Positions 5,456 to 33,256 of a stretch of 36,299 nt of DNA are shown here, in pieces (the first letter of the stretch is position 1; the number at the start of each line of letters is the position of its first letter). The DNA comes from a virus. Lineage: Duplodnaviria; Heunggongvirae; Uroviricota; Caudoviricetes. The translations under genes were made by a program, and so were the position numbers. A model generated the notes under the pieces. The model worked only from the letters and a program-made list of their open reading frames with translations. It was not told the origin of the DNA and ran no database searches. The DNA lies in the IMG/VR virus record IMGVR_UViG_2657245570_000017, positions 1 through 36,299 of that record; one strand, 5' to 3'.

Positions 5456-8278
5456 ATGACGACAGAGTACATCAGGGACTGGCAACAACCGCGCCACGCA
5501 GTAGGACGTGAAGGAACGGAGATCCCCGCACCTGAATCCGCGCTTTCCTCATGGCTGGATGCCTACCGGGTAGAGAACGAGCGCCGCCAGGAAATGGCTG
5601 ATGCGGCGTTCTCCGCCACACCGCTGGGCAACCTGATTAATAAAAGCCTGGACGCACAGGAAAAACAGGACAAAACCATCACACTGGCAGGAGACGCCAG
5701 AAAACAGGCACGCGGCGCGGTGGATGAAGCCATGGCCTCGCTGCGCCTGCTGCCGTCCTATCTGCGCGATCCGCTTATTCGCCACCTCTCCTTCCTGCGC
5801 AAAAAACAGGAAGCCGATCGCCGGAAAGGCAAAAAGAGCTGGCAGGCGGAACGCTATGCACGCGGAACCCTGCGCAAAATATTCGAACGTCTGGACCGCA
5901 CCGATCACCGCTGGCTGACACCGGGTTATCGCTCCCTTGCCGGACGCGAACGCCTGGACGATTTGCTTTACCTGCCGCAGCTCAACAAACACCAGATACA
6001 GACGCTGGCCACCATGACGGCGGCGATGTTCAGCAGCACCTTCGAAAAACTCTGCGATGGCTTTGGCGCGACCGATGGCGAGCTGACCATGGATGTAACG
6101 CTGAAGGCGTATCAGATGCTGGCCCGCATGGCGTTACACCTGCACGCCATGCCTCCACATTATGACGCACTGACAACAGACAAAGACCGGAGGAACGAAC
6201 CAGACACGGAGCTGCTGCCGGGCGCAATCCTTCGCCTGACCTGTGCGCAATGGTGGAAACGCAAACTGTGGCTGTTACGTTGCGAGTGGCGGGAAGAACA
6301 ACTCCGCGCCGCCTGTCTGGTTTCCAGAAAAACATCGCCCTATCTGAGCCAGGACGCGTTAAGCGAGTTTCGCGCACAGCGCGAGAAAACACGCGATTTC
6401 CTGAAAAGTTTCATGCTGGAAAATGAAGACGGGTTCACGATTGATCTCGAGACGGTGTATTACGCGGGAGTAAGTAACCCGGTTCACCGTAAGGCAGAAA
6501 TGATGGCCACCATGAAGGGACTGGAACTTCTGGCCGAAGCCCGTGGCGACAGAGCGGTGTTTCTGACTGTCACCTGCCCGTCAAAATATCACGCAACAAC
6601 GGAGAACGGTCATCCGAATCCCAAATGGAACGGGGCCACAATGCGCAACTCCAGCGATTACCTGGTTAACACGTTTTTTGCGGCGGTCCGCAAAAAACTG
6701 AACCGCGACGGTCTTCGCTGGTATGGCATCCGCACGGTGGAGCCTCACCATGACGGTACCGTACACTGGCATATGATGGTCTTTGCACATCCGGAAGAAA
6801 TCGACAGCATCGTGGCCATCACCCGCGATATTGCCATTCAGGAAGACCGCCACGAGCTGGGCAATGATATTACTCCGCGCTTTAAGGCGGAGTATGTCGA
6901 CGGCTCAAAAGGCACACCAACCAGCTATATCGCGACCTACATTGGAAAAAACCTGGACAGCCGCGCCGTGGATGGCATTGACCCGAAAACGGGCAAACCA
7001 CGCGTTGACCACGAAACCGGAAAATCAATGGCCGAGAGCGTGGAGCGCGCCATCGGCTGGGCGCGCCTTCACCGGGTCCGCCAGTTCCAGTTCTTTGGCA
7101 TCCCCTCCCGTCAGGTGTGGCGTGAACTGCGCCGCCTTGCCAGCCAGATGGCACGCAACCCGGAAGGCCCGCAACGACTGAAGGACGACGCAATGGATGC
7201 GGTACTCGCTGCCGCTGATGCCGGGTGTTTTGCCTCCTACATTGAAAAACAGGGTGGCGTACTTGTTCCACGCAAAGACTACCTGATTCGCACCGCCTAC
7301 GACCTCGCAGATGAGCTGAACGATTACGGCGAACAGAGTGTACAGATTTACGGGATCTGGTCGCCGCTCATCGGGGAGTCTTCCCGCGTGTGCACGCACC
7401 CGGATAACTGGAAGCTGGTAAGACGTAAACCGGAAGCGGAAGACAGCGCCCGCGAAAATGGTTTTGACCTTCAGGGCGGCCCTGCCGCCCCTTGGACTCG
7501 TGGCAATAACTGTCCCCGTGTACAGGAAACAGACAACAACGGGACAGAACAGCCGGAAGAACGGCCAGCACCGTGGCCGCAGCTTCCTGACGGCGTTGAC
7601 GTGAACGAATGGGTGCGCTCACTGAAACGGCACGAACGCCGGGCGCTGATGCGTTCGCTGCGTGACAAACAGGCAAAAAACAGCAGTGATGAAATGCAGA
7701 ACTGGACACAGAGCCGCAAACAGCCACAGCCTTTGCCTGATAACCACGAATTACTCGCTAAAGAATGGCGGGAGTCTGCTGAATCTCTCGGCCTGCATAT
7801 CGGTGAACAGCAGATGCAGCACCTGTTACGGGGCGGCAGTCTGTACGTTGACGGCAGCATCATTGCACCGCAGGGATTTGAAATTGTACGCAAACCGGAT
7901 ACCCGACCGGACAGCCGGATCACGCAGCTCTGGCAGCGCCTGAGCCGTAACCACGGCGTAAGCAGCACGGAGATCCGCCATAACCCGGTCGCCAGCTATC
8001 TGGAACAGCTGGGGGCATCAGACCCCGAAGCCGCCGCACGCCTGGCATCCACACTTCAGCAAGACCAGAACACCATGAAAACACCCGTTACCGTGCTTTC
8101 TGACATGCTGCGCGCCATCCGCGACGCAGAGCACGCACAGAGAATCAGTGAAACCACTGAACGCGCCCGCCGCAAAGCAGACCTGCTGCGGGGTGGCCTG
8201 ACCATTGGAAACAAAAAACAGACAGAAACGGGATTCACAAATCCCGTAAATGAGCAAAAAACGCGCCGCGATATATGA
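5456..8278 (+). CDS. A: Replication initiation endonuclease, P2 gpA-like, with long C-terminal extension
   Basis: 940 aa; HUH-type motif VHWHMMVF and paired catalytic tyrosines YIATYIGK; about 180-250 aa longer than the P2 or 186 A proteins as recalled. Confidence 0.85.
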   Translation: MTTEYIRDWQQPRHAVGREGTEIPAPESALSSWLDAYRVENERRQEMADAAFSATPLGNLINKSLDAQEKQDKTITLAGDARKQARGAVDEAMASLRLLPSYLRDPLIRHLSFLRKKQEADRRKGKKSWQAERYARGTLRKIFERLDRTDHRWLTPGYRSLAGRERLDDLLYLPQLNKHQIQTLATMTAAMFSSTFEKLCDGFGATDGELTMDVTLKAYQMLARMALHLHAMPPHYDALTTDKDRRNEPDTELLPGAILRLTCAQWWKRKLWLLRCEWREEQLRAACLVSRKTSPYLSQDALSEFRAQREKTRDFLKSFMLENEDGFTIDLETVYYAGVSNPVHRKAEMMATMKGLELLAEARGDRAVFLTVTCPSKYHATTENGHPNPKWNGATMRNSSDYLVNTFFAAVRKKLNRDGLRWYGIRTVEPHHDGTVHWHMMVFAHPEEIDSIVAITRDIAIQEDRHELGNDITPRFKAEYVDGSKGTPTSYIATYIGKNLDSRAVDGIDPKTGKPRVDHETGKSMAESVERAIGWARLHRVRQFQFFGIPSRQVWRELRRLASQMARNPEGPQRLKDDAMDAVLAAADAGCFASYIEKQGGVLVPRKDYLIRTAYDLADELNDYGEQSVQIYGIWSPLIGESSRVCTHPDNWKLVRRKPEAEDSARENGFDLQGGPAAPWTRGNNCPRVQETDNNGTEQPEERPAPWPQLPDGVDVNEWVRSLKRHERRALMRSLRDKQAKNSSDEMQNWTQSRKQPQPLPDNHELLAKEWRESAESLGLHIGEQQMQHLLRGGSLYVDGSIIAPQGFEIVRKPDTRPDSRITQLWQRLSRNHGVSSTEIRHNPVASYLEQLGASDPEAAARLASTLQQDQNTMKTPVTVLSDMLRAIRDAEHAQRISETTERARRKADLLRGGLTIGNKKQTETGFTNPVNEQKTRRDI
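8228..8247. promoter_or_regulatory. Palindrome 1, ACGGGATT-N4-AATCCCGT
   Basis: Perfect 8-bp inverted arms; lies in the 3' end of A, 127 bp upstream of the parM-like start. Confidence 0.5.
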
Positions 8279-13548: not shown

Positions 13549-13702
13549 TGCTCCCCCTGAGTAATTACAGGAAGATTACCCGCGCGCGAAACCGTTCTCC
13601 TTAACCCCCTGTTCTGGCCGTTTTCTTACAACAAAAGCCCTTTGTATCAGCCTGTTACGCTTTGCCATCATGACTGAAGAACCAGTCAGAGGGGCAAAAA
13701 CT

Positions 13703-18981: not shown

Positions 18982-19609
18982 GGCATTCACCCGCGTGGAT
19001 GAAACCTTTGAGGCCATCCGCGACAGCCTGAATCAGCAGGCCATCAATAACATCGCCAGAAAGCTGGCACAGGATTTACGCCGCGCCCAGCAGGCGCGTA
19101 TCCGGTCACAGAAAGCGCCGGACGGGACCGCGTGGACACCACGCAGACGCCGCGTAACCCGGATACAGGAACGCATTCGCTTTATCTGGAATAACGAAGC
19201 ACGCACGCTGAAAAACTGGCATCACGACACGGGGAAATACGGGCGAACCATTACCGGGTGGGATGAGGATAAAAATAATATCCGCACGTTTTACCGGGAT
19301 GACATCGACCGTTTTCTGGAAATACGCACCCGGCGCATCAACCAGGACAGCACAAAGCGCGTCCCCATGTTCGTAAAACTGCGCACCGCCCGCTACCTGA
19401 AAGCCCGTGCAGATGCTTCCGGTGTGACGGTGGGTTACAGCGGCGTGGCCGCACGTATTGCCCGCGTTCATCAGTTCGGTGAGCGCGATCAGGTTGCGCC
19501 GGGCATTTTCACCGATTACCCGGTACGTGAGCTGTTGGGTATCAGCCAGGCAGATGAGCGCCTGATTTATAACACGGTGCTGGGCCGGATTGCGGAGGCT
19601 GTACGGTGA
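18965..19609 (+). CDS. S: Tail completion/virion morphogenesis protein, gpS-like
   Basis: 214 aa (alternative start at 18974); longer than P2 gpS (about 150 aa as recalled). Confidence 0.7.
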   Translation: MKAMDKAFTRVDETFEAIRDSLNQQAINNIARKLAQDLRRAQQARIRSQKAPDGTAWTPRRRRVTRIQERIRFIWNNEARTLKNWHHDTGKYGRTITGWDEDKNNIRTFYRDDIDRFLEIRTRRINQDSTKRVPMFVKLRTARYLKARADASGVTVGYSGVAARIARVHQFGERDQVAPGIFTDYPVRELLGISQADERLIYNTVLGRIAEAVR

Positions 19610-21434: not shown

Positions 21435-22035
21435 TTCACTGTTACCACCATCAGCCAGCAATTTCATGCGTTGTGCCGAAGCCGTCGGAACACGCATTAC
21501 AGACATTCCGGTAGACCTCAACACGCTGTGGTCGCCGGACACCTGCCCGGTGCATCTGCTGCCTTATCTCGCCTGGGCGTTTTCCGTTGACCGCTGGGAT
21601 CGCAACTGGCCGGAAGAGACAAAGCGACAGGTAATTCGTGATGCATGGCTGATACACCGACACAAAGGGACCATCAGCGCACTGCGAAGAGCCGTGGAGC
21701 CTCTCGGTTACCTGATTGAAGTAAAGGAGTGGTGGCAACTCAACGAGGAGCCGGGAACATTTCGCATTGTTGTCGGAGTACTTGATCAGGGCATCACCGA
21801 TGAAATGTATCAGGAACTTGAGCGCCTTATTGCGGATGCAAAACCAGTAAGTCGCCATCTGACGGGGCTGGCGATCAGCCTGAGTGTGAACGGAAAGATT
21901 TTCGTTGGTACGGGATGCTATCACGGCGATGCCCTGACGGTTTATCCCTACACCCCGGAGTCCATTATTGTCGAAGGGGATTATTTCCCTGCCCCGGCCA
22001 TTCATTTAATTGATAATCTGAGAGTAAACGCATGA
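21427..22035 (+). CDS. I: Baseplate protein, gpI-like
   Basis: ATG at 21427, 202 aa. Confidence 0.75.
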   Translation: MSNSLLPPSASNFMRCAEAVGTRITDIPVDLNTLWSPDTCPVHLLPYLAWAFSVDRWDRNWPEETKRQVIRDAWLIHRHKGTISALRRAVEPLGYLIEVKEWWQLNEEPGTFRIVVGVLDQGITDEMYQELERLIADAKPVSRHLTGLAISLSVNGKIFVGTGCYHGDALTVYPYTPESIIVEGDYFPAPAIHLIDNLRVNA

Positions 22036-23627
22036 CAGTGAAATACTACGCCATTCTGACTAATCAGGGCGCAGCACGACTGGCTAACGCGACGATGCTC
22101 GGCAGTAAGCTGAATCTGACGCAAATGGCCGTTGGTGATGCAAATGGTGTGTTACCAACACCAGACCCTGCACAAACAAAACTGATTAACCAGAAACGCA
22201 TTGCACCGCTGAATCTTCTGAGTGTTGACCCTAACAATCAGAGCCAGATTATTGCGGAGCAAATCATCCCTGAAAACGAGGGAGGATTCTGGATCCGTGA
22301 GATTGGTCTTTATGATGATGAAGGTGTACTCATTGCGGTGGCAAACTGCCCGGAAACGTACAAACCGCAGTTGCAGGAAGGCAGTGGACGCACCCAGACT
22401 ATCCGCATGATTCTGGTTGTCACGAACACCGAAGCCATCACGCTGAAAATCGACCCGTCTGTGGTTCTGGCAACCCGCAAATATGTGGATGATAAAATCT
22501 CAGAGCACGAACAGTCACGACGTCACCCAGACGCCTCGCTGACCGTAAAAGGTTTTACTCAGTTAAGCAGTGCAATTAACAGTGAATCAGAAACACTGGC
22601 CGCAACACCGAAAGCGGTTAAGGCTGCATATGACCTGGCTAACGAGAAATATACCGCCCAGAACGCCACCACTACACAAAAAGGGATTGTTCAGCTCAGT
22701 AGCGCCACGAACAGCACGTCTGAAACACTGGCAGCGACACCAAAAGCTGTTAAGGCGGTAATGGATGAAACGAACAAGAAAGCACCATTAAACAGCCCGG
22801 CACTGACCGGAACGCCAACAACACCAACAGCGGCACAGGGGACTAATAGTACCCAGATCGCAAGCACGGCTTTCGTTATGGCCGCGATTGCCGCACTTGT
22901 AGACTCGTCACCTGATGCACTGAACACGCTGAACGAACTGGCTGCGGCGCTGGGCAATGACCCGAATTTTGCGACCACCATGACTAACGCGCTTGCGGGT
23001 AAGCAACCGAAGGATGCCACCCTGACTGCGCTGGCGGAGCTTGCTACATCAGCAGATAAACTCCCATATTTTACAGGGGCAGATCGTGCCGCGTTAACCG
23101 CGTTGACAAGTGTTGGACGTGCCATTCTTGGCAAAACCAGCACTCAGGGAGTTCTTGATTACCTTGGTTTGGGGGAAGGCTCTGCACTGCCCGTTGGTGT
23201 ACCTGTTCCATGGCCCTCAGCCACGCCGCCAACGGGGTGGCTGAAATGTAACGGCGCAGCATTTTCTTCTGAAATGTATCCCAGACTGGCAATGGCTTAC
23301 CCCACCAATAAATTACCAGACTTACGCGGTGAATTTATCCGTGGCTGGGATGATGGGCGCGGGGTGGATGCCGGAAGGGTCATCTTAAGCATGCAGGGGT
23401 GGTTAACAGGAAGTCATTATCATAATATTCGGTCATGGGATGCGTGGGATAACACGGTACTGGTGCCAAATGACAAAGGCGGGGATAGTCTGTTGTCGAC
23501 AGATAACGCCGTCCGGCAAGGTGCAATTAACGGTAGATTTACCAGTCAATACAGAACGGAATCCTCAGAGGGGAATGAAACCCGCCCACGCAATATTGCC
23601 TTCAATTATATTGTGAGAACCGCATAA
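22032..23627 (+). CDS. H: Tail fibre protein, gpH-like (constant region plus currently expressed variable cassette)
   Basis: 531 aa; tandem SETLAATPKAVKA repeats; collar-like GWLKCNGAAFS...LPDLRGEFIRGWDDGRG; C-terminus ETRPRNIAFNYIVRTA. Confidence 0.9.
   Translation: MTVKYYAILTNQGAARLANATMLGSKLNLTQMAVGDANGVLPTPDPAQTKLINQKRIAPLNLLSVDPNNQSQIIAEQIIPENEGGFWIREIGLYDDEGVLIAVANCPETYKPQLQEGSGRTQTIRMILVVTNTEAITLKIDPSVVLATRKYVDDKISEHEQSRRHPDASLTVKGFTQLSSAINSESETLAATPKAVKAAYDLANEKYTAQNATTTQKGIVQLSSATNSTSETLAATPKAVKAVMDETNKKAPLNSPALTGTPTTPTAAQGTNSTQIASTAFVMAAIAALVDSSPDALNTLNELAAALGNDPNFATTMTNALAGKQPKDATLTALAELATSADKLPYFTGADRAALTALTSVGRAILGKTSTQGVLDYLGLGEGSALPVGVPVPWPSATPPTGWLKCNGAAFSSEMYPRLAMAYPTNKLPDLRGEFIRGWDDGRGVDAGRVILSMQGWLTGSHYHNIRSWDAWDNTVLVPNDKGGDSLLSTDNAVRQGAINGRFTSQYRTESSEGNETRPRNIAFNYIVRTA
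23152..23177. other. hix/gix-like recombination site S1 inside H
   Basis: TTCTTGATTACC-TT-GGTTTGGGGGAA; left half matches hixL TTCTTGAAAACC at 10 of 12 as recalled; right half identical to the cassette sites. Confidence 0.6.
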
Positions 23628-24238
23628 TGAATAACGCGATATTAAATGATGACCTTATTGCCGTACAGGCAGGAAACATCGTCGTTTATAACTATGATGG
23701 TGAGACACGGGAATATATTTCCGAATCAACTGAATATCTTGCTGCGGGTGTCGGTATTCCGGCAAATTCCTGTTTAGATGCCCCGGGCGCACATAAAGCG
23801 GGCTATGCTATCCGCCGTTCGGAGAATTTAAATTCATGGGAGTATACGCCAGATCATCGTGGTGAAACCGTCTATAACACTGACACGGGAAACACCGAAG
23901 AAATCACGACGCTAGGTGACTACCCGAAAAATACAACCACTATCTCCCCGTCAACACCATACGATAAATGGGATGGTGAAAAATGGGTGACAGATACTGA
24001 GGCACAACATAGTGCCGCAGTAGAAGCGGCAGAAACCAAGCGCCAGTCACTGGCTGATGCGGCAATGGCTTCCATAAGTCTGATTCAGTTGAAGTTGCAG
24101 GCCGGGCGGAAGTTGACGCAGGCAGAAACCACCCGGCTTAACGCCGTGCTGGATTATATAGACGCGCTGAACGCAATGGATATAAACATGGCACCAGATA
24201 TCAACTTGCCGGAAATACCACTGGCAGCAGCCAGTTGA
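23627..24238 (+). CDS. G: Tail fibre assembly chaperone, Tfa/gpG-like
   Basis: 203 aa; start overlaps the H stop; conserved Tfa-type C-terminus LNAVLDYIDALNAMDINMAPDINLPEIP. Confidence 0.8.
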   Translation: MNNAILNDDLIAVQAGNIVVYNYDGETREYISESTEYLAAGVGIPANSCLDAPGAHKAGYAIRRSENLNSWEYTPDHRGETVYNTDTGNTEEITTLGDYPKNTTTISPSTPYDKWDGEKWVTDTEAQHSAAVEAAETKRQSLADAAMASISLIQLKLQAGRKLTQAETTRLNAVLDYIDALNAMDINMAPDINLPEIPLAAAS

Positions 24239-24244
24239 ATATAA

Positions 24245-24712
24245 CTAAGCCGCCCTCACGATATAGTTAAATGCAATATTGCGGGGGCGGGTTTCACTAC
24301 CACCTGTGTTACCAATACTTCCTCGTGAATGAAGCGTTGGTGATGGAATCAAACTCCCTCCTGTATTTGTGGCATCAAGCCCCCTGCCTTGTGTATATGT
24401 TTTTTTGAAAATCGTGGCCAACTCCCATTCATCCTTTGTGTCATATCCATCGTTAGCTACAACAATATGGCGGTGTTTTTCCAACATCCCGGTTTGAATG
24501 CTCAATAAAGCGCGTGCTGCATCAATTCCTCGCCCATCATCCCAGCCACGAATAAATTCGCCCCGTAAATCCGGTAATTTATTGGTGGGGTAGGCTTTTG
24601 CCAGATTGGGGTACATTTCAGAAGAAAATGCTGCGCCGTTACATTTCAGCCAGCCCGTTGGTGGTGTTGCTAAGGGCCACGGAACGGGCACACCAACGGG
24701 CAGTGCAGAGCC
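24245..24712 (-). other. Silent tail-fibre C-terminal cassette (5'-truncated, promoterless)
   Basis: Encodes GLGEGSALPVGVPVPWP...collar motif...variable tip...ETRPRNIAFNYIVRAA; homologous to the 3' third of H. Confidence 0.8.
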
Positions 24713-24738
24713 TTCTCCTAAACCAACGTTTTCATGCT
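24713..24738. other. hix-like site S2
   Basis: TTCTCCTAAACC-AA-CGTTTTCATGCT, inverted relative to S1; contains the stop codon of the next cassette. Confidence 0.6.
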
Positions 24739-25229
24739 GCTCTTACGATGTAATTAAACGCAATGTTGCGTGGGCGGTTTTCGTTTGCAGTTGGAACAAT
24801 TCTTGAAGCATCAAGGCCAATCACTTTTGGGTAAACAGTGCCATCTGTTCTTTCAGTCACCATACTTCTGATTAAGGAGAAATAACTATTGTTCGTTGAG
24901 GGACTCAAAGGCACCACTGCCCCCTTAAATGAGCCTACTGATTCCCATATTGAATAATTTTCGGTGTTTACAGTCTTGAACTCACCATAGATATTACGTA
25001 TGGCATCACCTTGAGCGGATAATATTGTTCTCCCCGCATCCACACCACGTCCGTCATCCCAACCACGGATAAATTCACCGCGTAAATCCGGTAATTTATT
25101 GGTGGGATAAGCCTTTGCCAGTTTTGGGTACTTTTCAGAAGAAAATGCTGCTCCGTTGCATTTCAGCCATCCCGTTGGCGGTGTTTCTAAGGGCCACGGA
25201 ACGGGTACACCAACGGGCAGTGCAGAGCC
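24732..25229 (-). other. Silent tail-fibre C-terminal cassette
   Basis: Same conserved N- and C-terminal segments with a different central region. Confidence 0.8.
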
Positions 25230-25255
25230 TTCCCCCAAACCAACGTTTTCATGCT
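25230..25255. other. hix-like site S3
   Basis: TTCCCCCAAACC-AA-CGTTTTCATGCT. Confidence 0.6.
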
Positions 25256-25707
25256 GCCCTTACGATGTAATTAAACGCAATGTTATGGGGGCGTGTTTCA
25301 GATGCTGTGCGAACTGAGCGAGAGGCGTCGAATGTCCATACAGAAGCACCATATCCTTCAATGATCTCAGTTGGTTGTAAGCCTACTGATAATATAGAGT
25401 CAGTTTGACTAAATGGTCCTGAATTAAGCGCATCTTTAAAAAGCTGAGTACGCCCAAAAGTGCCAACTATATTCTGAATAGCGTCAGACTGTGCAGACAG
25501 TAGGTTGCGCCCATTATCAACGCCCCGTCCGTCATCCCAGCCGCGAATAAATTCGCCCCGTAAATCCGGTAATTTATTGGTGGGGTAGGCCTTTGCCAGA
25601 TTGGGGTACATTTCAGAAGAAAATGCTGCGCCGTTACATTTCAGCCACCCCGTTGGCGGCGTGGCTGAGGGCCATGGAACGGGCACACCAACGGGCAGCG
25701 CAGAGCC
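25249..25707 (-). other. Silent tail-fibre C-terminal cassette
   Basis: Third variant; the ORF-track N-terminal extension beyond the site is read-through of non-coding sequence. Confidence 0.8.
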
Positions 25708-25733
25708 TTCCCCCAAACCAACGTTTTCGTCTT
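25708..25733. other. hix-like site S4
   Basis: TTCCCCCAAACC-AA-CGTTTTCGTCTT, 55 bp upstream of the invertase start. Confidence 0.6.
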
Positions 25734-25787
25734 TATCCCTACCTATACCAACTATGTATTTTTCACGAAACAAAAAGGATGTTTTTT

Positions 25788-26387
25788 ATGCAAATTGGCT
25801 ATATTCGTGTGTCAACAAATGACCAGAACACGGATTTACAACGCAATGCACTGAACTGCGCAGGATGTGAACTGATTTTTGAAGATAAAATCAGCGGAAC
25901 GAAATCAGCCAGACCGGGATTGAAAAAACTGCTCAGAACGCTATCAGAAGGAGATACGCTGGTTGTCTGGAAGCTGGACAGACTGGGCAGAAGTATGAAA
26001 CACCTGATCACGCTTATTGAGGAATTGCGGAAAAAAGGTGTTAATTTCCGTAGTCTGACGGACAGCATTGACACATCAACACCCATGGGGCGTTTCTTTT
26101 TTCACGTCATGGGGGCTTTAGCCGAAATGGAACGTGAATTAATTGTAGAGCGTACACTGGCCGGGCTGGCAGCAGCACGCGCACAAGGACGCATTGGCGG
26201 ACGTCGCCCGAAGTTGACAAAAGAACAACACGAGCAAATAGCGAGGCTGATTAAAAACGGTCATGACAGGAAACAACTGGCGATCATTTACGACATCGGC
26301 ATATCGACGATTTATCGTTATCACCCTGTAGGCGATATACAGGCTGAAGAAACAACCAGGCAGACTCAGGAAAATGAAAACCGCTAA
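25788..26387 (+). CDS. Serine DNA invertase, Hin/Gin/Cin/Pin family
   Basis: 199 aa from ATG at 25788; GYIRVSTNDQ (catalytic Ser), TLVVWKLDRLGRS, MGRFFFHVMGALAEMERELIVERT and a C-terminal HTH match Hin as recalled. Confidence 0.9.
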   Translation: MQIGYIRVSTNDQNTDLQRNALNCAGCELIFEDKISGTKSARPGLKKLLRTLSEGDTLVVWKLDRLGRSMKHLITLIEELRKKGVNFRSLTDSIDTSTPMGRFFFHVMGALAEMERELIVERTLAGLAAARAQGRIGGRRPKLTKEQHEQIARLIKNGHDRKQLAIIYDIGISTIYRYHPVGDIQAEETTRQTQENENR

Positions 26388-26406
26388 TCTGACCATTAGC
26401 GGTTTT
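26375..26406. terminator. Bidirectional hairpin between convergent invertase and U
   Basis: GAAAACCGCTAAT-CTGACC-ATTAGCGGTTTTG, A-run 5' and T-run 3'; overlaps the invertase stop codon. Confidence 0.6.
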
Positions 26407-30805: not shown

Positions 30806-31989
30806 CAGGCACCTCCCAGAACCGCAAATGCGGGTTCAAAGTATTCATCAGTAAACGTCTGGTAAAGCTCCATGTCTTCCAGTGGCGGAACGGGCGTATA
30901 TTTGTAGCGAATACGCACACGCCCCTGACGTAAATCCGTGGTGCTGTTATCCACCACGTCATACCAGCACTGCGCGCCAATCAGTTTCCCGGCAGTAACC
31001 AGTGAATCCAGTTTTGCCCTGATGGCACTGATAACATCCTTCACGTTCGCAGGCGTCAGTGGACTGTCGATGGTTTCAAACTGCGCTTCCGCAATTGAAT
31101 CAGCCAGCACCTGTGCGGTTCGGGTATACACCTCAAAAATGTAGGCGTTCGTTTCCGGTGTGCGGTTGCCCCAGAAGCGGAACCCGTTGCGACGAATAAT
31201 GGTCGTGATTTCTTTGTTGTTGAGGCTGTTGGCATCGCTGTCTTCGGCCTGCAACGACCAGAACACATGCCTCGACATCCCCAGCACATTTTTAACCGGA
31301 ACGTTGGACAGCGATTTGTGCCAGCCCTGCTCATGGTCAATGTACGCACGAAGGCCGCACGCATAAGCAGGCGCGGGGAACGTTTCGTTTTCGCCACTTT
31401 TCGGGTTGTAGGCGATGAAGTCCGGCCATAAGAGCATCACTTCACGTTCGTTGAATTTCTGGCGGTAGGTAATCGCTTCAGCCATCGTGTTACAGCCGTG
31501 ACATGAGGCATACACAAATGCGCGCAGTTTACCCGCAATCACGCACAGGGATTTTGTCACCGCCTCCGTGTCCAGCTCCGGCGCGGCCAGAATACGCGGA
31601 CGGTATCCGATGCTTTCATCCTGCTCTGCAACAAGCAGCGCATACATCCCCGTATAGCTGCCGTCATCCTCAGAACCACCGATAACCAGTTGATCCTGCG
31701 TCTTTTCGTCTTCTTCTTTGTGTTCAGCCACGCGAACGACGATCACCTTTGTGCTCACCTGGTCTGCGATGGCCTTAAGCGCACGATAAAGCGTCCCCGT
31801 TGTTCCGCATTTTCCCAGCACGTCATTGACGCGGGTCAGCAGTGTGGGCTTGTTCAGCGGGAACAACTTCGCGTCCGCATCATCCGCCGTTGCCACGATA
31901 CCGATAACGCTGGAATCAACATCGTTAATCGCTGTTACCAGGTCGGTATTTTCCGTAACACGGGCACCATGAAAACGAGTTTCACTCAT
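30805..31989 (-). CDS. FI: Tail sheath protein, gpFI-like
   Basis: 394 aa; FPLNKP, LRAF, WPDF, EQGWHK, RRNGFRFWGNRT, YTRTAQV and YTPVPPLE segments match P2 FI as recalled. Confidence 0.9.
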   Translation of the reverse strand: MSETRFHGARVTENTDLVTAINDVDSSVIGIVATADDADAKLFPLNKPTLLTRVNDVLGKCGTTGTLYRALKAIADQVSTKVIVVRVAEHKEEDEKTQDQLVIGGSEDDGSYTGMYALLVAEQDESIGYRPRILAAPELDTEAVTKSLCVIAGKLRAFVYASCHGCNTMAEAITYRQKFNEREVMLLWPDFIAYNPKSGENETFPAPAYACGLRAYIDHEQGWHKSLSNVPVKNVLGMSRHVFWSLQAEDSDANSLNNKEITTIIRRNGFRFWGNRTPETNAYIFEVYTRTAQVLADSIAEAQFETIDSPLTPANVKDVISAIRAKLDSLVTAGKLIGAQCWYDVVDNSTTDLRQGRVRIRYKYTPVPPLEDMELYQTFTDEYFEPAFAVLGGA

Positions 31990-32144
31990 AGCTTCAGCCC
32001 CTTGTATCCGTTAAATGATTCGGCAACAATCATCACCCACCACGCGCGTAATCTCACCCCTGCGCCGTTCTCCCGCCACGGCGACAACAAAAAGCAGTAA
32101 CCCCCTCCGCACGCACATGCGACCATGCCACACAGGGAGGGAGC

Positions 32145-33256
32145 AGATGACCGACACCACCATGCAATTGCTCAGTCAGGGCACAGACCCCGTGAAAATG
32201 CCGGATTTTGATATTCTCGCCGAGGGTAAAACGCTGTCCGGCGTGGCAGAACGCCTGATGAGCCTGTCACTGACCGACAACCGGGGATTTGAGGCGGACC
32301 AGCTCACCATCACGCTGGATGATGCCGATGGCCAGTTGCAGCTACCGCCACGGGGCGCGCGTCTGACGGTTCTCATTGGCTGGAAAGGGGAACCGCTGAC
32401 AGAAAAAGGCACTTACATTGTTGATGAAATCGCTCACGAAGGACCGCCGGACAGGCTGACTGTTTCAGCCAGAAGCGCAGATTTTCGGGATGAATTTAAC
32501 GTTAAACGTGAGGTGTCATGGCATGATGTGACCGTTGAGCGTGTGGTATCCGCCATCGCTCATCGGTACGGCCTGAAACCGCAAATCAGCGAAATGCTGA
32601 TGGATATCGAAATCGACCACGCCGACCAGACTGAAGAAAGCGACATGTCCTTCCTTACGCGCATGGCGGAAATGCTGGGCGCAATCACCACGGTAAAAAG
32701 CGGTAATCTGTTATTCATCATGCCCGGCGGTGGCGTGAACGCACAGGGCCAGCCGTTGCCATCGTTCGCCATCACACGCAGCAGCGGCGATCGCCATCAG
32801 TTCCGCATTGCTGACCGCGAGGCGTATACGGGGGTACGCGCTTACTGGCTTGATCTTAATTACGGGAAAAAGAAAAAAGTCAGCGTGAAACGCCGCAAAC
32901 CGCCAAAACCCAAAAAGGAGAAAAGCAGCAGCCGTGAAGGTGATTATATGGAAGGCGCAGAAGGCAATGTGTTTGTGTTACGCAAGACTTATCAGAACGA
33001 GCAGGCAGCAAGACGCGCAGCGGCGGCAAAGTGGCAGCAGCTACAACGCGGAGCCGCATCATTTTCCATCACGCTGGCACGCGGACGCGCAGAACTCTAC
33101 CCCGAAATGCATGGCACGGTAACAGGATTTAAAAGCGAGATTGATAATCAGGACTGGATTATTGCAAAAGCCGAGCACACCATTGATAACAGTGGCTTTA
33201 CCACGCAGCTTGAGCTTGAGGCAAAAATCCCGGAATGGATAGCGGAAATAGAGTGA
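32145..33256 (+). CDS. D: Tail protein D (late control gene D family)
   Basis: ATG at 32145 with GGGAGGGAG RBS, 370 aa; immediately upstream of ogr as in P2. Confidence 0.7.

Follow-up and report, generated by a model that had tools for sequence, protein, structure and literature searches.

Tail-fibre genes whose variable 3' parts lie in invertible DNA are found in several phages and plasmids. In the two-state switches of Mu (Gin/G), P1 (Cin/C), e14 (Pin/P) and P88, invertases of one family act on a constant part and an invertible variable part, and each variable part has its own chaperone gene (Sv-U / U'-Sv'), one of which is always in sense. A more complex arrangement, the Min multiple-inversion system of p15B, is said to have been described by Sandmeier, Iida, Arber and colleagues in 1990-92. 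In Min and its P1-like copies, a Din-family serine invertase gene lies beside overlapping invertible segments, and Min combines one constant 5' fibre part with several short collar-type 3' cassettes and a single 612-bp tfaE-like gene. Here, we analyzed a module of this kind in the virus record IMGVR_UViG_2657245570_000017 (Caudoviricetes), whose full 36,299 nucleotides are referred to as the window. This module carries four alternative tips for the tail-fibre gene H and only one tail-fibre assembly chaperone gene, tfa, which is itself located in the invertible DNA.

Overall, the data point to a Min-type (p15B-like) multiple-inversion module with a generalist Tfa whose supply would be limited by the orientation of its gene, a combined reading to which we give about an even chance of being correct. 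Only the comparative evidence for a generalist chaperone, and a paradox posed by one silent cassette (Sv2), go beyond the available literature. The components of the module are, from left to right:

22032..23164, + strand: Hc, constant 5' part of the tail-fibre gene H, up to the core of site S1 (Pfam Phage_tail_fib 1e-62, Phage_fiber_2 repeats).
23152..23177, + strand: crossover site S1, TTCTTGATTACC TT GGTTTGGGGGAA, inverted relative to S2-S4 (alignment of repeat copies, inverted repeats I1-I3).
23166..23627, + strand: Sv1, the tip now fused to Hc, collar-type, with an HxH motif (Pfam Collar; PDB matches 2XGF, the T4 gp37 tip, and 9CUY).
23627..24238, + strand: tfa, the sole tail-fibre assembly chaperone gene of the window, 203 residues, e14 TfaE/HK97 Tfa type (Caudo_TAP 3e-32).
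24245..24724, - strand (open reading frame (ORF) 24245-24691): Sv2, silent, tail-to-tail with tfa and in the same invertible segment (ORF and Collar domain).
24713..24738, - strand: crossover site S2, reading TTCTCCTAAACC AA CGTTTTCATGCT on the + strand, which holds the Sv3 stop codon (repeat alignment).
24732..25241, - strand (ORF 24732-25238): Sv3, silent single-cassette segment without a chaperone gene (ORF and Collar domain).
25230..25255, - strand: crossover site S3, TTCCCCCAAACC AA CGTTTTCATGCT, which holds the Sv4 stop codon (repeat alignment).
25249..25719, - strand (ORF 25249-25773): Sv4, silent single-cassette segment without a chaperone gene (ORF and Collar domain).
25708..25733, - strand: crossover site S4, TTCCCCCAAACC AA CGTTTTCGTCTT, the right-hand limit of the invertible DNA (repeat alignment).
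25788..26387, + strand: serine DNA invertase of the Min/Pin/Gin/Hin type, with the catalytic Ser in YIRVSTNDQ, outside the invertible DNA (Pfam Resolvase 2e-51, HTH_7).

The layout of the window appears to match the Min type, judging from secondary sources and related sequences, and it shares all the features of Min given above. It differs from p15B in being a chromosomal P88-like P2-family prophage with a P2 H-like constant part (that of p15B is P1 S-like), in having four crossover sites and 12 isomers where p15B has six sites, and in a tail operon that converges on the invertase gene. The inversion region of pMCR_SCKP-LL83 is reported to be 99% identical (92% coverage) to p15B min, and its gene table has a single 612-bp tfaE together with seven small ORFs beside the invertase gene. 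P1-like loci in our set (L024-L030) have 3-9 cassettes, one tfa and an invertase 97% identical to that of the window; the invertase gene of the window is intact. A single tfa between two outward-pointing cassettes, with single cassettes in the other segments, occurs in the window and 25 related loci, the P1-like ones included, and the Sv1-tfa-Sv2 core (at least 80% coverage) was detected in 161 of 5,426 complete Escherichia coli genomes, on chromosomes and on P1-sized plasmids. The window is therefore a further replicon with a known and common module, present in p15B and many E. coli prophages. An initial sequence-only reading of the window had drawn attention to the single tfa; the observation stands, but the layout is not unusual, given this frequency and the likeness to p15B.

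Other described systems share parts of the design. The two-state switches have the same invertase family and the same division into a constant and an invertible variable part, and the StfE-TfaE pair of e14 is of the same tip and chaperone type as Sv1-tfa. Unlike the window, they keep one chaperone gene in sense; such a two-chaperone layout was seen in P88, in the locus L051 and in Salmonella phage MET_P1_103_31, the first two of which belong to the prophage lineage of the window itself. The R64 shufflon (Rci) resembles the window in that multiple overlapping inversions determine which of several C-termini a single adhesin gene encodes, but it uses a tyrosine recombinase and has a pilus tip adhesin, PilV, and no chaperone. 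A close relative with experimental data is a prophage of enteropathogenic E. coli (EPEC) E2348/69, which we infer to be our locus L004 because the three repeats and the inversion sizes match. Its gpI and H N-terminus are 100% identical to those of the window, its tfa is 96% identical and the Sv1-tfa-Sv2 segment is present; it differs in having three sites and three tips where the window has four of each. In cultures of this strain, four variants of the P2-like prophage with three inverted repeats were reported to coexist, as detected by whole-genome sequencing and polymerase chain reaction (Goldberg et al. 2014, PMC4272514); the part of this article available to us mentions neither the chaperone gene nor its orientation.

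Gene H of the window (22032-23627) combines a P2-type N-terminus with fibre repeats and a Collar domain at its C-terminal end, and Hc is 97-100% identical among related prophages. The crossover sites lie in a repeat of 210-240 nt present in four copies that are 84-90% identical, each beginning with a 26-bp site of the Gin/Hin kind; S1-S4 all carry the half-site TTCyCCyAAACC and an AA core, with S1 inverted relative to the other three. Since the inverted-repeat arms extend over 209-240 nt with 84-90% complementarity, the module is not a chance pattern. The serine invertase and the four sites are predicted to join the one constant H part to any of the four collar-type tips. For the Fis-dependent recombinational enhancer expected in the 5' part of such an invertase gene, a degenerate Fis-binding pattern gave 78 matches (82 expected by chance), and a pair with the 48-bp spacing of an enhancer was not seen in 25788-26000.

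The one tfa/gpG-like gene noted between S1 and S2 was confirmed by Pfam, by a match to PHROG 105 (tail fiber assembly, 2e-91) and by tblastn, in which five different Tfa proteins found no second tfa in all 36.3 kb. The absence of chaperone genes from the silent cassettes was borne out likewise. The minus-strand cassettes Sv2, Sv3 and Sv4 abut one another, only 6 nt separate the tfa and Sv2 stop codons, and the Sv3 and Sv4 stops lie inside S2 and S3, so that there is no space for additional genes. The last 16 residues of the four tips (ETRPRNIAFNYIVRTA, ETRPRNIAFNYIVRAA, ENRPRNIAFNYIVRAA and ETRPHNIAFNYIVRAA) had been described as the same; they are nearly so, each differing from the consensus by one change at most, and exact identity was not found. 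By internal motifs the tips form two subclasses, Sv1 and Sv2 with HxH and Sv3 and Sv4 with GDAIxNI. The ORFs of Sv3 and Sv4, as well as L003 3209-3667, appear in listings or annotations as 'phage tail protein' genes in their own right, with TTG or GTG starts in or just past a site, and the Sv4 ORF runs 17 codons past S4 into fixed DNA. Such separate genes are probably annotation artefacts, because they have no evident ribosome-binding site.

How, then, might one chaperone serve four tips? When 173 cassettes were clustered, at least 20 tip types emerged, each made up of about 85 conserved residues at the N-terminus, a middle part of 50-80 residues that varies, and a C-terminal RPRNIAFNYIVRAA strand; the 52 invariant alignment columns are all located at the two cassette ends. 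In phmmer searches, the cassettes matched 2XGF (5e-16; collar and C-terminal NIAFNYIVR strand) and 9CUY (8e-19). In the T4 gp37 structure, the collar is formed by N-terminal collar residues together with the C-terminal strand, and a variable needle and tip protrude from it. On the basis of these alignments, the cassettes are classified as T4 gp37-like tips with a constant collar and C-terminal strand and a variable insert.

Near-identical TfaE-type chaperones (at least 97% identity) directly follow at least 12 tip types, including the types of Sv2, Sv3 and Sv4. Among 47 Tfa proteins of 200 residues, 26 pairs with at least 97% identity are located beside different tip types, and the identity of the Tfa N-domain is 86% between tip types and 94% within a type. 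The Tfa of the window is also 74-79% identical to those of HK97 (74%), MET_P1_103_31 and L051, whose tips differ. A co-oriented tfa comes directly after the Sv3 type in MET_P1_103_31 (97% identity in the variable part) and six IMG/VR loci; L050 and L060 show this for the Sv2 type, and L036 shows it for the Sv4 type. More distant relatives of these tips, likewise with tfa next, occur in HK97, HK106, Aeromonas phage 56 and a Yersinia P2-like phage. This co-occurrence strongly supports the first of three possibilities raised by the sequence-only reading, i.e., that the chaperone recognizes the conserved parts of the fibre: the single Tfa would be a generalist that reads the invariant scaffold of collar and RPRNIAFNYIVRAA strand. 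With a generalist of this kind, extra chaperone genes would be unnecessary. Tfa proteins are described as having an N-domain that binds the fibre and a conserved C-domain that trimerises (PMC9608196, in its summary of North et al. 2019). A sequence search of PDB with the window Tfa gave no significant match.

In T4, gp37 is assembled with the help of gp38, and the window cassettes align to the gp37 collar region and its C-terminal strand. Neither this pair nor the Stf-Tfa pairs of lambda and HK97 are subject to inversion, and the sequences of gp38 and Tfa are unrelated. In the assembly of gp37, lambda Tfa can substitute for gp38, in keeping with recognition of a shared scaffold. Chaperone bypass is also known in principle for T4 gp37, and this bears on a different explanation, in which only Sv1 needs Tfa, the other three tips fold alone or with host factors and the orientation of tfa is irrelevant. 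The lack of chaperone genes in the Sv2, Sv3 and Sv4 cassettes and the placement of Sv3 and Sv4 in another subclass than Sv1 and Sv2 are in line with it. We consider it quite improbable, as the Sv2, Sv3 and Sv4 types, when they are the resident tip elsewhere, are directly followed by a co-oriented TfaE-type tfa. Folding without Tfa, which had also been put forward for the alternative fibres, is disfavoured by the same arrangement.

A generalist must also be made, and the position of tfa inside the invertible DNA makes its orientation dependent on recombination. In silico, S1xS2, S1xS3 and S1xS4 inversions gave in-frame H proteins of 537, 547 and 534 residues (531 in the native order), and each moved tfa to the opposite strand. 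The S1xS2 isomer of the window aligns with the IMG/VR locus L006 as a contiguous 3,685 bp at 99.89% identity, and the native order matches it in two pieces; thus the same prophage has already been sequenced in the flipped state. We collected 80 loci by Tfa protein alone, a search blind to orientation, and 25 multi-cassette modules were readable. Leaving aside L011 and L029, tfa was co-oriented with H or the invertase gene in 11 of these IMG/VR loci and opposed to it in 12 (n=23). The condition that no inversion occurs, named at the outset as one that would overturn the sequence-only reading, is not the case, as judged from the L006 isomer, the 11:12 orientation ratio and the flipping in EPEC.

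These data also bear on the view that the silent cassettes are decaying remnants which no longer invert, with tfa serving Sv1 only. In its favour is only the fact that the window shows one isomer. The invertase gene is intact and all fusions are in frame, the ratio of nonsynonymous to synonymous polymorphism (pN/pS) is 0.08-0.24 across all cassette types, an inverted isomer of an identical prophage exists, and flipping has been shown by experiment in the closely related EPEC prophage. We regard this view as hardly credible, and the orientation counts, the EPEC flipping and the L006 isomer refute it.

In all 25 informative multi-cassette loci, the cassettes to the left of tfa are co-oriented with it and those to the right are opposed. 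The module consists of one double-ended segment, e1 (Sv1> tfa> <Sv2), and two single-cassette segments between sites. Because every site points into one cassette and only Sv1-tfa-Sv2 has cassettes at both ends, the allowed orders are k single cassettes in sense, e1 in either orientation and the rest antisense, which yields n!(n+1)2 isomers, or 12 for the window. The same rule gives 240 at six sites, and 240 isomers is reportedly the published figure for p15B.

In six of the 12 isomers tfa is in sense. The sequence-only reading had stated that any S1 x S2/S3/S4 inversion places tfa on the non-coding strand; this holds for single inversions, and a second inversion of e1 can restore the sense orientation while the expressed tip stays the same, so that the antisense state is obligatory for Sv2 only. 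Fusion of Sv3 or Sv4 to H with Sv1-tfa downstream in sense is possible after the second step, and natural isomers with another tip on H and Sv1-tfa still in sense were found in L003, L005 and L008, the last being a two-step isomer. Sv2 alone must be expressed with tfa antisense.

Several features of the deposited sequences concern the same rearrangements. Many IMG/VR contigs (L006, L009, L010, L012-L016, L021 and others) terminate in or beside the invertible module, as expected if mixed isomers and repeats of 210-240 bp break short-read assembly, in which case draft genomes under-report the module. L011 (5085-8089, IMG/VR UViG 2541047915_000010) has two Sv1-tfa-Sv2 copies in opposite orientations, with a palindromic junction and overlapping collar matches at about 6422-6752. 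This reflects either two isomers assembled into a chimera or a genuine duplication, and the latter, if true, would keep one tfa always in sense. In L002 (1500-7600; Escherichia phage vB_EcoM-673R5, ON470615.2), the Min-like region is frameshifted, with the S gene, tfa and the invertase gene ('Hin1'/'Hin2') split, as if by sequencing or assembly error in an invertible region rich in repeats.

The Sv1 stop codon overlaps the tfa start (TAATG), and a fibre stop and a tfa start sharing a base were also seen in HK97, MET_P1_103_31 and L051, which suggests that tfa is co-transcribed and translationally coupled with the fibre gene. In the mechanism we propose, tfa would be the last gene of a late V-W-J-I-H operon, coupled to Sv1 through TAATG, and Tfa would be produced only in the six isomers with e1 in sense. 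These isomers would cover expression of Sv1, Sv3 and Sv4 and never that of Sv2; in the remaining six, Tfa would be scarce or absent. Ongoing flipping in the lysogen population would keep Tfa-proficient isomers available for Sv1, Sv3 and Sv4.

Alternatively, tfa could be adequately expressed both ways, from an activator-dependent promoter in the Sv1 coding sequence or by read-through of the convergent gpU/tape-measure operon, and all 12 isomers would be functional. This explanation is possible, though in our view somewhat unlikely. Sv1 is the only DNA always upstream of tfa (all 23 copies of its tip type lie directly before a tfa), and its variable part has the lowest synonymous diversity (pS), 0.125 against 0.20-0.29 in the other types; an embedded signal would fit this, and recent common ancestry would explain it equally well. 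In the searches for a promoter, a sigma-70 scan returned 7 sites (6.9 expected), none of them upstream of tfa; the Ogr-type motif TGT-N12-ACA is absent from Sv1; two motifs shared by putative late regions, CCGTTYTCY and ACAACAAAARC, have no match on the tfa strand within the module; and inspection of Sv1 by eye revealed just weak sites with wrong spacing. Sliding-window diversity was flat, without a conserved nucleotide island upstream of tfa, in a segment only 3-4% diverged.

As for read-through, the FI-T-gpU operon converges on the module, so that in flipped isomers any transcript passing beyond gpU would have the same sense as tfa. One further feature lies in their path:

26377..26406, unstranded: hairpin with perfect 12-bp stems and A4/T4 flanks, between the convergent invertase and gpU genes (terminator scan).

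With fold energies of -16.9 and -15.6 kcal/mol (z about -4.1 on both strands), this hairpin is a probable bidirectional terminator. As it has T runs on both strands, read-through from the gpU operon should be weak. In L002, the one P1-like module examined in this respect, the genes beyond the invertase gene run in its direction and no operon converges on it; read-through is therefore not a general solution. As a source of Tfa, it was judged unlikely on these two grounds. In flipped isomers, moreover, any tfa mRNA would be opposed by the strong late transcript, which is antisense to it. Expression of tfa in both orientations, another possibility raised by the sequence-only reading, could thus not be shown, with no promoter found upstream and a terminator between the module and the convergent tail operon.

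Orientation-limited supply nevertheless faces points of its own. All 18 copies of Sv2 in the tail-to-tail position with tfa are intact, and the variable part is under purifying selection, with a pN/pS of 0.20 in this position and 0.08 in the Sv2 type as a whole (22 copies). An intact and selected Sv2 suggests that Sv2 fibres function with tfa antisense, which limitation by orientation does not explain; Sv2 cannot be accounted for without some orientation-independent Tfa or Tfa-independent folding. The layout is also old and widespread, although a standing loss of half of the induced lysogens would carry a high cost. Both observations, the conservation of Sv2 and the occurrence in 161 genomes (an argument against a dead end for 50% of isomers), favour expression both ways. 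The promoter searches in Sv1 were consensus scans, which an activator-dependent late promoter may escape. Finally, the proposed scaffold recognition is deduced from co-occurrence.

A further reading, which we think unlikely, is that e1 orientation is a second, independent switch, in which Sv3 and Sv4 would occur in Tfa-plus and Tfa-minus states and Sv2 in a Tfa-minus state only; otherwise, a hidden promoter in Sv1 would free tfa from orientation. Such a switch, if true, would mean programmed ON/OFF variation of infectivity or extra receptor specificities. The latter are conceivable because the Tfa proteins of Mu and Ur-lambda remain on the fibre and contribute to host binding, as summarised in PMC9608196.

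With respect to its genomic context, comparison of sequences identifies the window as a P88-like (Xuanwuvirus) P2-family prophage of E. coli. P88 and its relatives match the invertase-gpU junction at 81-84%, and an unusual gene order, with V-W-J-I-H-tfa on one strand and the convergent gpU-T-E-FII-FI on the other, is common to the window and P88. The motif CCGTTYTCY occurs five times in the window (1.2 expected), including 13592-13600, 13618-13626, 19309-19317 and 32065-32073. The + strand has four of the copies, at 30-300 nt before the starts of the capsid scaffold gene, gpV and gpD, and ACAACAAAA(A)GC comes after two of them. P88-like phages, in which the P2-type TGT-N12-ACA is lacking at these places, may have a late-promoter element in this motif. 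For the gpD-like gene, the longest ORF (32015-33256) begins only 25 bp away from the divergent sheath gene; comparison with P88 points to the ATG at 32148, just after GGGAGGGAG, as the probable true start, which would leave a divergent promoter region of about 160 bp (31989-32150).

Another arrangement of collar-type tips was seen in Photorhabdus. In L097 (6419-8600), and likewise in L098, L101, L106 and L110, a short H with a collar tip is followed by a free-standing 147-residue collar-tip ORF in direct orientation, which has an ATG of its own, and a single tfa comes next. In these loci the invertase gene is located about 5 kb upstream, on the far side of the baseplate genes, and in L106 a collar fragment beyond the invertase gene hints at inversions that span the baseplate operon.

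Each fibre tip has to be matched to a folding chaperone, which matters for the host range of phages and for engineering both phages and tailocins. The comparative data suggest that one TfaE-type chaperone can serve at least 12 collar-type tips, and if Tfa is indeed a generalist, tip swaps would have to leave the shared collar and C-terminal strand in place as its handle. The mode of Tfa supply in the inverted state, with half of the isomers possibly blank, would also matter for P1-like phage-plasmids that carry resistance genes.

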